Shown piece after piece: positions 10,264-11,753 of a stretch of 24,000 nucleotides of DNA. Where the stretch lies: positions 1 to 24,000 of the forward strand of contig CAZEXG010000001.1 in assembly GCA_964516665.1 (NCBI GenBank). The letters run 5' to 3'. The DNA comes from an uncultured Gammaproteobacteria bacterium. Lineage in GTDB: Bacteria > Patescibacteriota > Microgenomatia > UBA12405. The first letter of the stretch is position 1, and each line of letters starts with the position of its first letter. The translations under genes were made by a program, and so were the position numbers. Below the pieces are notes generated by a model. It was not told where the DNA came from. It did no database searches and worked only from the letters and a program-made list of their open reading frames with translations.

Positions 10264-10320
10264 CCACCATATTTTCCGGATTTATTCCTACTTTCTTTTT
10301 TAATTATACTATCCTATAAC

Positions 10321-10349
10321 TTGACATTATTACACATTAATGATACACT
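10321..10349 (+). promoter_or_regulatory. Candidate sigma-70-type promoter with extended -10
   Basis: -35 TTGACA (10321-10326, perfect), a 17-nt spacer ending in TGA, and -10 TACACT (10344-10349). This gives TGnTAnAnT, an extended -10. An A/T-rich tract lies upstream. Predicted transcription start is around 10356. Confidence 0.45.
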
Positions 10350-10355
10350 TCATTA

Positions 10356-10785
10356 CAATTGATTGTTGATTGTTATAGTCAACTTTCAATGCTTTAACAA
10401 ATCGAAGTTTTTACTTCCCCTTGATAATCATCAGGGGAGAGATTCTCGGGGTAGGGTGGCTCCTCGTCATACTTACTCCGTTTCTCCCTTGGTGATTATT
10501 TCACCAAACTACCAGCGGCTGCTCAGACACCGCGTTTGAGATAGCTTAAAGTAGAGTACTTTAACAATCTCTTTCTTCAATCTTTCCTAAAAAATTCCCT
10601 AATCTTTATAACTCAAGTAGGACCCTGGGTATTAACCCTAATATCTAGAGCCCTACTTGAATTTATATTGAAAGGAGAAATAAGTTCGACGACTTAGGAG
10701 CTAATCCTAAGTAGCAGACTGTTGGAGCAAATACGAGAGTATTTGCCAAGCAGTAAGTGTTTTTATCTTTGCGGGATGCCCCGAA
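10356..10785 (+). ncRNA. ORF-free, hairpin-dense ~430-nt leader or unknown structured RNA upstream of the G+C-rich ORF
   Basis: No ORF of 60 aa or more on either strand. Hairpins read by eye: GAAGT-TTTT-ACTTC (10404-10417); CCCC(T)TGAT-AATC-ATCAGGGG (10417-10437); an extended GGGAGAGA/TTTCTCCC plus CGGGG/CTCCG helix (10435-10488); TTGGTGA-TTATT-TCACCAA (10489-10507); interleaved GCGG/CCGC and CTCA/TGAG (10515-10540, possible pseudoknot); TCAAGTAGG...CCTACTTGA (10612-10660) enclosing GGGT-ATTA-ACCC; CTTAGGA-GCTAA-TCCTAAG (10693-10711); GCAAATAC-GAGA-GTATTTGC (10727-10746, GNRA loop); CGGG-ATGC-CCCG (10772-10783). No RNA family recognised. Confidence 0.35.
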
Positions 10786-10799
10786 AAGGAGGCTTTCCT

Positions 10800-11627
10800 A
10801 TGACCCGCAAAAATCAAACGATTGCCTCATTGGCATTTCAAGAACGCCGCGCAAAACGCCGCGTCCTTGCCAATCAGGACCACCCTAAGGAGGGAACAGT
10901 GAACACATTTTGGCGTTCGATTGTAATCGTCGGCATCATCTGCCTGACGGTTCTGTGTCTCGCCGGATGTTTTTTAACCGGCTTTGGCGGTTGGCTTGCC
11001 TCCCGCCCGGTCGAAACCAACGTCGCCCCGACCAACACCCCGGTCAGCCAAACGGCTGTCCCGGAAGTCGTCGCGACCGCAATCCCTATGCCCGTGTCTT
11101 GTACAACCCCTTCGATCAAAGCTGGCTTAAACGCTGCTGAGACCGAGTTCGGGGAGTACCTGGACACCAACCTCGGAGAGAGGATGACTTTCACTTCCCG
11201 GCGCCCTCTGGTACCGGACAAGAAGTGGAACGATCCCCTCACTCCTGAGGAGCTCAAAACCGTCGAGGAAACCTGGCAATTCATGCAGGTCTGCATTCCC
11301 GACGGAACCACAGGCGTGATTTTTGCCGGTGGCTTTGAGCAGGGCGTCAATCGCTACGAAACGGGTGCTTTGCTGTCTCTGACTCCTGGACTCTATGAGT
11401 TCAAGATGAGGAACGGTGAAGTCACGATCTGGTATCCCGGACAGGAAACCTTCGTCTCGAAGGACCTCGAAAGGATAGTTCTCCAGATCCGGACGGGTAA
11501 TTTCGACATCAAGTCGCCGCTGGCCTTCCTTGCCGCGACTGCTGATCTCTTCGCCAAGGTCCCCCAGGATCTTGTCAAAGAGCGCAATGTCCAAATTGCC
11601 CCCGCCCCGGACCCCGTGGTTCAGTAG
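10800..11627 (+). CDS. Hypothetical membrane-anchored or lipoprotein-like protein encoded by a G+C-rich, foreign-looking gene
   Basis: Strong SD AAGGAGG (10786-10792) lies 7 nt before ATG 10800. 275 aa: basic N-terminus (QERRAKRR), hydrophobic segment IVIVGIICLTVLCLAGCFLTGFGGWLA containing a lipobox-like LAGC, a Pro/Thr/Val linker, then a ~190-aa domain I do not recognise. Third codon positions are G/C-biased. G+C is 38/60 at 11041-11100 and 31/60 at 11401-11460, against about 30-38% in the flanking genes. The track's TTG 10722 start lies inside a leader hairpin and is not preferred. Confidence 0.65.
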   Translation: MTRKNQTIASLAFQERRAKRRVLANQDHPKEGTVNTFWRSIVIVGIICLTVLCLAGCFLTGFGGWLASRPVETNVAPTNTPVSQTAVPEVVATAIPMPVSCTTPSIKAGLNAAETEFGEYLDTNLGERMTFTSRRPLVPDKKWNDPLTPEELKTVEETWQFMQVCIPDGTTGVIFAGGFEQGVNRYETGALLSLTPGLYEFKMRNGEVTIWYPGQETFVSKDLERIVLQIRTGNFDIKSPLAFLAATADLFAKVPQDLVKERNVQIAPAPDPVVQ

Positions 11628-11636
11628 CGATTCACC

Positions 11637-11666
11637 TGCAGGTGTCCCCGCAAGGGGACACCTGCA
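11637..11666 (+). other. Perfect 13-bp stem-loop with GNRA (GCAA) tetraloop, no U tract
   Basis: TGCAGGTGTCCCC (11637-11649) GCAA GGGGACACCTGCA (11654-11666), 10 nt after the ORF stop. It is followed by a purine-rich tract (11667-11700) rather than a T run, so it is not a canonical intrinsic terminator. Confidence 0.6.
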
Positions 11667-11700
11667 CACAGGGGAAACAGGAAAGAAAGGAGAAAGAGAT

Positions 11701-11753
11701 TGGCATTTATCGATGAATGTCGATACTGATGAGTCCAAAAGGACGAAATGCTA
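11701..11753 (+). ncRNA. Type III hammerhead self-cleaving ribozyme (complete core)
   Basis: Read directly: TGGCAT T / TATCGA TGAATG TCGATA CTGATGA GTCC AAAA GGAC GAA ATGCTA. Stem III: 11701-11706 pairs with 11748-11753 (A15.1-U16.1 closing pair, one G-U). H17 is U11707, so predicted cleavage is between 11707 and 11708. Stem I: 11708-11713 with 11720-11725 (6 bp). Core CUGAUGA: 11726-11732. Stem II: 11733-11736 with 11741-11744 (G10.1-C11.1, loop AAAA). GAA: 11745-11747. The CUGAUGAGUCC....GGACGAAA segment matches the classic sTRSV-type hammerhead string CUGAUGAGUCCGUGAGGACGAAAC except in loop II and at the last base. Confidence 0.85.

Follow-up and report, generated by a model that had tools for sequence, protein, structure and literature searches.

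A predicted ribozyme-processed, heavily structured mRNA for a variable surface protein at a conserved locus of Candidatus Shapirobacteria

On contig CAZEXG010000001.1 (assembly GCA_964516665.1), of which positions 1–24,000 were analysed (hereafter the window), galU is separated from the gene for a family 2 glycosyltransferase (GT2) by an interval that carries a promoter, a long leader, a 275-codon open reading frame (ORF) of unusual composition, and a hammerhead ribozyme. A preliminary description had taken this interval for a compositionally foreign, horizontally acquired cassette. Comparison with related loci shows that it is an expression site conserved by vertical inheritance in Candidatus Shapirobacteria (Candidate Phyla Radiation (CPR)/Patescibacteria), and not an insertion. 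The interpretation favoured here, with a probability of about 0.6, is that the site gives rise to a ribozyme-processed, end-paired and heavily structured mRNA for a variable surface protein. The composition of the ORF is best read as reflecting selection for a heavily base-paired and probably long-lived mRNA, for which foreign ancestry would not be required.

A conserved expression site between galU and GT2

The interval (10264–11752) is the whole gap between the galU stop codon (TAA, 10263) and the conserved GT2 start codon (ATG, 11753), and its length of 1,489 nt is as first reported. The order galU, leader, ORF, hammerhead, GT2, large membrane protein was found in at least 25 lineages, the organisms with related loci being named Candidatus Shapirobacteria by GTDB. 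This synteny was seen at every related locus (given L numbers below) that is long enough, with a membrane protein of ~870–930 aa, and SHMT usually close by. The earlier idea of a mobile unit, whose parts might travel together into other loci, did not survive this comparison: the same locus and the same order always recur, never elsewhere, and neither the unit at a second location nor an empty site was seen among the related loci. No integrase, transposase or recombinase is encoded in the 24-kb window, in agreement with the preliminary description for the first two, and no relatives were found in viral collections (IMG/VR, GenBank phages). Of the features that define a mobile element or genomic island, the interval shows a composition unlike that of the host but neither variable presence or location nor mobility genes.

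The concern that the interval might be an assembly chimera is refuted by contigs from two other sequencing runs, which match positions 10547–12727 and 10312–11797 of the window with one mismatch each. Because these independent assemblies reproduce them, both compositional junctions are real.

A hammerhead ribozyme at the GT2 start codon

The ribozyme that had been recognised at the end of the interval is a type III hammerhead that covaries across relatives, with helices I and II closed by loops and helix III open (Table 1). A covariance model built from seven sequences returned 31 matches (E 1e-20 to 1e-3), with a single match in the window. When 21 distinct hammerheads were aligned, 95.5% of cells were paired, against 23–41% in slid controls, and compensatory changes were present at 14 of the 17 pairs. 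Of 19 distinct hammerhead sequences extracted across the loci, 14 were parsed correctly, and these share an invariant core (CUGAUGA...GAAA), save for one U7C change where variation is tolerated; the nucleotide at the cleavage site (H17) can be U, C or A but is never G, and U16.1 pairs with A15.1. This comparative analysis makes the predicted hammerhead convincing despite its low Rfam score. The Rfam gathering score is a curation threshold rather than a biochemical criterion, and hammerheads of this family are unannotated because none of them reaches it.

The ribozyme is closely tied to GT2. Helix III finishes on the A of the GT2 ATG in the window and in most lineages, the hammerhead always ends 0–9 nt before the GT2 start, and the 3' strand of helix II (GGAC, GGGC, GGAGGGC) is often Shine-Dalgarno-like, 8–10 nt upstream of that start. 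The start context ..GAAAYGCUAUGACCAAC is conserved among relatives; an alternative GT2 start at 11717 was rejected, as it lies within the variable helix I and is not conserved. L022 and L025 carry a second ORF paralogue after GT2, yet their hammerhead still stands directly before GT2. Because these loci keep the order ORF, hammerhead, GT2, the hammerhead is a conserved 5' element of GT2, and not the 3' boundary of a mobile cassette as had been suggested.

Two further sequence features were noted around the ribozyme. A promoter-like match within it (11700–11727, 9/12) is not conserved in sequence in relatives and probably arose by chance. L008 (~1455–1545) and L011/L012 (~1860–1930) contain a hammerhead-like element with CUGAUGAG, helix II and then CGAAUC, in which 15.1–16.1 is swapped to U-A and the end of the R arm described below provides the 5' strand of helix III. 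This element, which lies farther from GT2, was missed by the hammerhead covariance model and excluded from the counts; it may be either an inactive relic or a variant of the core.

A long-range inverted repeat adjoining the ribozyme

Terminal inverted repeats were reported as absent from the interval, wrongly: a 24-nt, 88%-complementary pair, here termed the L and R arms, brackets its variable segment, and both arms are conserved in most lineages. In the window the L arm is the best upstream partner of the R region (dG -37 versus -22 shuffled), and across the arm-bearing lineages tested it is the best partner within the upstream 900 nt in 10 of 10 (-31 to -37 versus -16 to -23 kcal/mol for shuffled R). 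L050 maintains the complementarity with a different sequence (UUUUUUGC..GUGUGU with ACACAC..GCAAAGAAAA), as does L029 (UCUUGUGU with ACACAAGA). At the position of the arm, before the hammerhead, L022 and L025 have a local 13-bp hairpin. Since the R arm ends where helix III begins, and a local hairpin takes this place in L022/L025, a stable helix directly 5' of the cleavage site is conserved in the lineages that bear arms or hairpin. The arms look like the two strands of an RNA helix that adjoins the ribozyme. At L006 (6754–6967, with the same sequence in L045), an insert of ~140 nt includes a called 57-aa minus-strand ORF and breaks the adjacency of arm and ribozyme.

A perfect hairpin also occurs just 3' of the ORF stop codon, with the same stem in L009. 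It is not an intrinsic terminator, because it lacks a U tract, and no plus-strand terminator was predicted between the ORF and the GT2 and membrane-protein genes. A 14-nt match to CRISPR-DR57 on this hairpin, from a permissive Rfam scan, was rejected as chance.

Promoter and structured leader

The near-consensus promoter and the long leader reported earlier are both present. The promoter is of sigma-70 type and is conserved in the window, L001, L006, L009, L013, L037, L040, L047 and L055; the leader extends ~440 nt from promoter to ORF, with a structured part of ~200 nt before the L arm. These 200 nt are better conserved than the protein. An alignment of 16 leader sequences supports 37 pairs, with 90.4% paired against 36–53% in slid controls, and 23 pairs show compensatory changes. 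In hairpin 2, each of the 14 pairs is supported by a compensatory change in one sequence or more (CUAC/GUAG against CUGC/GCAG, for instance), and the leader's many G-U pairs are compatible with the plus strand only. The 3' strand of hairpin 1 has an alternative partner in a downstream segment (UUGGUGA/UCACCAA), forming a hairpin that is 93.6% paired with double changes in 4 of 7 pairs, and the layout of the leader therefore looks like that of a switch.

The leader matches no Rfam family. A match of its minus strand to RT-2 RNA in the permissive scan (15.7 bits, E 0.64) was rejected as chance, and a leader peptide (58-aa ORF, 10363–10539) was rejected because the leader helices covary and the indels among leaders do not come in multiples of three. 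The segment just past the -10 element (10354–10383) is strongly conserved and contains palindromes (ACAATTGATTGT; GTTGA..TCAAC); it is 92% complementary to 10558–10569 at the foot of the L arm (pair I12), and could be an operator, a 5'-end structure or a leader-closing helix. Downstream of the conserved leader lies a variable 5' untranslated region (UTR). The perfect Shine-Dalgarno sequence AAGGAGG noted earlier was found at 10786–10792, 7 nt before the ATG at 10800, in the loop of a hairpin formed by 10744–10775 and 10804–10835.

Allele replacement within conserved flanks

Recombination between strains exchanges the ORF, and chiefly its C-terminal domain, within flanks that remain conserved. 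Compared with L037, the window shows nucleotide similarity through galU and the leader to 10591, none detectable beyond this point, and similarity again from 11679. Identity to L001/L037 drops to random from ~10582, and position 11679 is exactly where similarity to L037, L043 and L013 begins again. Leader and hammerhead align together with the flanks at 76–93% nucleotide identity, whereas the intervening ORF can be unalignable. This discordance extends to closely related pairs: GT2 is 100% identical between L013 and L043, and between L029 and L034, with ORF C-domain identities of just 41% and 48%, respectively, and 94% identical between L002 and L037, with 45% in the C-domain. The window and L008 show the opposite relation (GT2 73%, C-domain 84%). 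L062, the closest flank relative of the window (91.6% nucleotide identity in GT2 and beyond), has a different allele (45% aa identity) with breakpoints at ~10792 and ~11635.

Breakpoints between near-identical strains vary by pair, and some lie within the ORF, where the C-terminal domain begins, which indicates homologous mosaic replacement; site-specific recombination at the arms was rejected on these grounds. The earlier claim of horizontal acquisition is thus retained for the ORF, which is exchanged by allele replacement, but not for a module with its own promoter, leader and ribozyme, as these belong to the host flanks. Of the features of an invertible switch, flanking inverted repeats are present but both orientations are not, no inverted copy of the ORF having been found in 64 loci.

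Additional paralogues of the ORF family were observed at L047 (2459–2968, upstream of the leader), L022 (2941–3597) and L025 (3079–3588); in L022–L026 and L041 the paralogue lies between GT2 and the large membrane protein. The extra paralogues of L047 and L022–L025 could act as allele donors.

Composition, strand skew and mRNA folding

The reported G+C enrichment of a single ORF with G/C-rich third codon positions was confirmed: the ORF has 56.3% G+C, against 38.6 +/- 2.3% (maximum 45.0%) in other 828-nt segments of the window (z = +7.8), and its G+C content at third codon positions (GC3) is 0.66, against 0.28–0.41 in the other 24 genes. The 60-nt counts given for the ORF (38/60 at 11041–11100, 31/60 at 11401–11460) and its surroundings (18/60 at 9601–9660, 23/60 at 12301–12360) are exact. 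GC3 is higher in the C-terminal part (0.63–0.83) than in the first 60 codons (0.53–0.57).

The plus strand of the window contains 6,390 C versus 3,044 G (G+C skew -0.35, AT skew -0.13, T>A), a strand asymmetry that is unusually strong for a bacterium. Genes on the two strands share its sign, so the asymmetry is linked to the strand and not to transcription. Among the related loci checked, L001, L004, L006, L022, L037, L050 and L055 have skews of -0.25 to -0.33, and L020 of just -0.11. The ORF C-domain is without asymmetry in 37 of 39 loci, with a mean skew of -0.03 versus -0.29 for GT2, and third-position skews of -0.29 and -0.58, respectively. The variable 5' UTR has a skew of +0.06 in the window and +0.05 to +0.14 across five loci, and the conserved leader of -0.03, compared with -0.41 in the other intergenic DNA of the window.

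In most lineages the G+C content of the ORF lies 8–20 points above that of its flanks, whether the allele is among the closest (L057, L058, L062) or distant (L029, L050, L063), and none of ~60 loci has a host background above 45% G+C. As this state persists across alleles differing by ~16–60% in protein, a single recent import cannot explain it, and the compositional anomaly does not mark a recent foreign origin. In contrast to the copy that precedes the hammerhead, the paralogue located after GT2 is close to native in both G+C and skew.

The window ORF mRNA folds at -326 kcal/mol (-0.39 per nt, z -4.7 against dinucleotide shuffles), and the GT2 mRNA at -152 kcal/mol (-0.17 per nt, z -1.6). 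In seven diverged loci, z-scores against synonymous permutations are -2.2 to -7.1 for the ORF and +0.6 to -3.5 for the adjacent GT2, with the ORF lower in 7 of 7. Predicted pairing per nucleotide in ORF mRNAs is about twice that in neighbouring GT2 mRNAs. Base-paired RNAs in AT-rich genomes have balanced G and C at raised G+C, and since the plus strand of the window has just 12.7% G, enrichment in G is needed to pair with C. The balance of G and C at raised G+C, together with the folding excess, therefore favours the view that selection has acted for a stable mRNA with dense pairing, on a strand poor in G; import from an unsampled reservoir and G+C-biased gene conversion are possible contributors.

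The predicted surface protein

Homologues of the ORF product numbered 42 in one search and 70 cluster representatives in another. AlphaFold2 gave a predicted local distance difference test (pLDDT) score of 83.5 overall, and above 90 for the C-terminal 175 residues. The protein comprises a basic N-terminal helix, a transmembrane (TM) or signal segment with LAGC (54–57), a Pro/Thr/Ala-rich linker, and a conserved beta-rich C-terminal domain (~101–275). LAGC follows an unusually long N-terminal region of 39 residues, and many homologues have classical short MKK...L(T/S/A)(A/G)C signals. The product is predicted to be a membrane-anchored or lipoprotein-like secreted protein. Its Pro/Thr-rich linker, beside galU, GT2 and a GT-C-like protein, suggests as a reasonable guess that it is a substrate for glycosylation. 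Pfam and NCBIfam yielded no match for the protein, two PHROG matches were insignificant (E 0.097 and 0.62), and PDB sequence-profile and Foldseek searches gave nothing significant, with weak hints of a cupin-like beta-barrel at E above 0.01.

A model of ribozyme-processed expression and its alternatives

In the proposed model, a single transcript would run from near 10356 through the ORF, GT2 and the large membrane protein, and the hammerhead would cut it after U11707. The new 3' end of the upstream product, a 2',3'-cyclic phosphate, would lie ~5 nt beyond the L-R helix, and would thus be held in a ~23-bp duplex with the 5' UTR of the same molecule, which would block 3' exonucleases or serve as an RNase III stalk. 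The downstream product would begin with a 5'-OH, its GT2 start codon freed from helix III and the helix II 3' strand often able to double as the GT2 Shine-Dalgarno sequence. Cleavage would in this way uncouple an abundant surface-protein mRNA from the glycosyltransferase mRNA, permitting unequal expression of the protein and its probable modifying enzymes. Taken further, the locus may represent a previously undescribed mRNA design, in which a ribozyme-made 3' end is locked to the 5' UTR, the coding sequence is selected for pairing over AT bias and skew, RNA flanks act as anchors for allele swapping, and a leader with mutually exclusive helices constitutes a new class of CPR cis-regulatory RNA; this broader proposal is put forward tentatively.

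Several observations weigh against the model. Every functional step in it is inferred. The window hammerhead scores 28.2 bits (E = 0.002) against Hammerhead_3 (RF00008), under the gathering score of 48.5, and the best scores of its relatives (46.6, 39.4 and 38.1) also fall below this threshold; with its short loops, the ribozyme may not cleave fast at physiological Mg2+. The comparison of cognate with non-cognate arms is informative for L050 and L029 only, and since the L and R cores are otherwise almost invariant, arm covariation rests on these two divergent lineages. L006 and L045 carry ~140 nt between an R-like tract and the hammerhead, the L arm is truncated in L009, and L016, L018 and L020 have no arms. 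The structure z-scores derive from 20–24 shuffles and minimum free energy (MFE) predictions on RNAs of ~800–900 nt, with one GT2 control at -3.5. ORF GC3 ranges from 0.24 to 0.71 among alleles and is unrelated to host GC3, a spread poorly explained by uniform selection, and searches of Pfam, NCBIfam, PDB and PHROG assigned no function to the ORF protein.

The independence of ORF GC3 from host GC3 is also what would be expected if G+C-rich alleles had been repeatedly imported by homologous replacement from an unsampled, richer and skew-free donor, such as another CPR lineage or silent cassettes, and had not yet ameliorated. Allele replacement is demonstrated, possible donor paralogues exist in L047 and L022–L025, and the third-position G (~0.30) and C (~0.38) of the window ORF are those of an ordinary gene in a genome of ~55% G+C. 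Such foreign ancestry is nevertheless rather unlikely: no background above 0.45 G+C was seen among the ~60 loci, and G+C-rich alleles that diverge by 16–55% in protein sequence all reside in low-G+C hosts, so the state persists without decay; the conserved leader, which is not swapped, is also without skew, composition-preserving permutations fold worse than the native sequence, and the viral collections hold no relatives. Mosaic recombination within the ORF would equally accompany G+C-biased gene conversion, with the gene as a recombination hot spot in which biased heteroduplex repair raises silent-site G+C, and this process could account for a GC3 above that of the adjacent GT2 in most lineages and for the higher GC3 of the often-swapped C-terminal part than of the first 60 codons. 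It is considered improbable as the main cause, because the gain is mostly of G rather than of G and C equally, the variable 5' UTR is not G+C-rich (0.40) but is skew-free too, and the structure excess over composition-preserving permutations is left unexplained.

The sharp compositional step, the promoter within the interval and the flanking inverted repeats first invited the view that a self-contained module of promoter, leader, ORF and hammerhead had been inserted between galU and GT2 by some form of mobility. This is very improbable, given the same arrangement and locus in all related genomes, a leader and hammerhead that evolve with the flanks, the lack of an empty site, second location or mobility genes, and a hammerhead that stays with GT2 in L022/L025 despite the second paralogue after GT2. 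The inverted repeats bracket exactly the variable, skew-free segment, and surface-protein genes are typical targets of invertible phase-variation switches; if the arms were invertase sites, time spent in both orientations would cancel the skew. There is, however, little to be said for such a switch, with 0 inverted copies in 64 loci, no recombinase nearby, breakpoints that vary and fall inside the ORF, a local hairpin in place of the long-range helix in L022, and an arm pairing in the window that includes a G-U pair, which is a C-A mismatch on the other strand. G+C-rich DNA yields long spurious ORFs, of which there are two on the minus strand here, but an artefact, whether a chimeric assembly or the misreading of a G+C-rich non-coding RNA as an ORF, is hardly credible when two independent assemblies are identical across both junctions, and the protein family is conserved with a high-confidence fold.

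Features of the interval and its surroundings

The coordinates of the interval and its neighbours are collected in Table 1. The match of galU to the NCBIfam galU model (E=4.5e-53) is under the curated cut-off, and the protein is 45–81% identical at the amino-acid level among related loci. The 872-aa membrane protein downstream of GT2 had been labelled a GT-C enzyme; its architecture of multiple TM segments and a large external domain fits this label, but it matches no GT-C family, and no match was obtained in Pfam, NCBIfam or PDB sequences. The rest of the window is of housekeeping type (Suf system, tRNAs, HPF, ThyX, thymidylate kinase, ribonucleotide reductase, SHMT).

Table 1. Features of the galU–GT2 interval and flanking genes, in window coordinates
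Feature	Position	Strand	Details and evidence
galU (UTP-glucose-1-phosphate uridylyltransferase)	9370–10263	+	Conserved left neighbour; Pfam NTP_transferase
Sigma-70-type promoter	10321–10349	+	TTGACA (10321–10326), 17 nt, TACACT (10344–10349), TG extension; consensus scan, 10/12 positions
Leader hairpin 1	10423–10500	+	Long, near-perfect, apical GGCUCCUC motif; MFE -45.7 kcal/mol, z -6.5; covariation, 16 sequences
Leader hairpin 2	10509–10554	+	Three stacked helices closed by CUAC/GUAG, ends CAGAC-ACCGC-GUUUG; MFE -17.5, z -3.2
L arm	10565–10588	+	Pyrimidine-rich half of long-range inverted repeat; 24 nt, 88% complementary (pair I2); window-specific extension to ~10601
Variable 5' UTR	10592–10799	+	Belongs to swappable segment; hairpin 10610–10663 (inverted repeats I1, I3)
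275-aa ORF	10800–11627	+	Unnamed family; homologues, AlphaFold2, composition
Hairpin just 3' of ORF stop	11637–11666	+	Perfect 13-bp G+C-rich stem, GCAA loop (pair I11)
R arm	11679–11702	+	Purine-rich half; 3' end abuts or overlaps hammerhead helix III
Type III hammerhead	11701–11753	+	Rfam Hammerhead_3 match 11703–11751
Hammerhead helix III	11701–11706/11748–11753
Hammerhead helix I	11708–11714/11719–11725
Hammerhead helix II	11733–11736/11741–11744
Hammerhead core	11726–11732; 11745–11747		CUGAUGA; GAA; predicted cleavage after U11707
GT2	11753–12628	+	Pfam Glycos_transf_2 E=3.9e-35; start codon inside hammerhead base
872-aa membrane protein	12636–15254	+	~10 N-terminal TM, big extracytoplasmic region, C-terminal TM (hydropathy); syntenic in all loci

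Insertions concentrate in the stretch from galU to the promoter, a hot spot that in relatives holds differing toxin-antitoxin-like pairs: Gp49/HTH pairs in L001 (4787–5443) and L006 (4794–5447), and a YafQ/HigB-like gene with small ORFs on the opposite strand in L004 (4340–5535). The window has none (galU stop 10263, promoter 10321). At the Rfam gathering threshold four tRNAs alone were detected in the window, as two gene pairs on the minus strand (9154–9306 and 4495–4677). The former lies directly upstream of galU, is overlapped by a spurious 90-aa ORF (9227–9499), and includes a tRNA that is 96–97% identical in L055 and L056. Three mutually overlapping genes lie at 5184–7310; their products are a radical SAM protein of 269 aa, a class II aminoacyl-tRNA-synthetase-like protein that is truncated (255 aa), and a GGDEF protein that stands alone (189 aa). 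The first two may resemble the EF-P lysylation pair EpmB/EpmA. L049 (CAZJUH010000020.1) is labelled 'uncultured Gammaproteobacteria bacterium', yet has a Shapirobacteria-type locus (GT2 79–85% identical to Shapirobacteria loci), probably through a binning or labelling error in the public record.

Significance and comparison with known systems

What appeared to be a foreign island is reinterpreted as a conserved, RNA-centred expression device in the CPR, a group of phylum level in which RNA processing is barely known. The locus adds 21 distinct covarying hammerheads below current Rfam thresholds, with a fixed chromosomal role at a start codon and a clearer functional context than most bacterial hammerheads. 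It also supplies a long-range 5'-3' helix and a structured leader motif that is new, both of which are directly testable. The hypervariable and probably glycosylated surface protein is a candidate mediator of attachment to the host, or of interaction with phages, in episymbiotic bacteria. The locus also serves as a caution that local anomalies in G+C and skew can be produced by selection at the RNA level, and not by horizontal transfer.

Bacterial and phage hammerheads are known to flank genes in polycistronic RNAs (Perreault et al. 2011, PMC3088659), and HHphage of haloviruses HF1/HF2 lies 13 nt upstream of a start codon, with a mapped 5' end (PMC3088659). The Shapirobacteria hammerhead shares with known type III hammerheads (RF00008) the catalytic core, three covarying helices, the topology, and an intergenic position in one transcription unit. 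It differs in being chromosomal and vertically conserved in a housekeeping-type CPR operon rather than part of a prophage or retroelement, in a helix III that includes the start codon, in a preceding stable helix that is long-range in most lineages, and in scoring below the Rfam threshold. Within the library of papers searched, none was found to link hammerheads with CPR/Patescibacteria. New here are the CPR host, vertical chromosomal conservation, a start codon built into helix III, the long-range 5'-3' helix next to it, a leader that belongs to no known class, and the compositional signature of the enclosed gene.

Likenesses to other systems are partial. The arms resemble the RNase III-cut processing stalks of 16S and 23S rRNA, in that a ~23-bp helix with a small internal loop, and arms more than 1 kb apart, brackets a functional RNA; here, unlike in rRNA, the helix would bracket a protein-coding mRNA beside a predicted self-cleaving ribozyme. 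Abundant mRNAs for envelope proteins that carry stabilising 5' leaders, such as those of ompA and of S-layer genes (for example Lactobacillus slpA), likewise have a strong promoter, a long structured 5' UTR, a secreted or surface-protein product and adjacent glycosylation genes, and some S-layer systems show allelic variation by recombination, as does the Shapirobacteria ORF. The ompA and slpA leaders are unrelated in sequence or fold, and the present locus differs from them in the proposed ribozyme-made 3' end paired to the 5' UTR and in a compositionally shifted coding region. In its near-identical flanks, deeply divergent mosaic alleles, and incongruent phylogenies of gene and flanks, the locus is like those of surface antigens such as capsule, O-antigen and pilin, but it comprises a single small gene in a tiny-genome, episymbiont-type lineage, and its conserved flanks are RNA elements.

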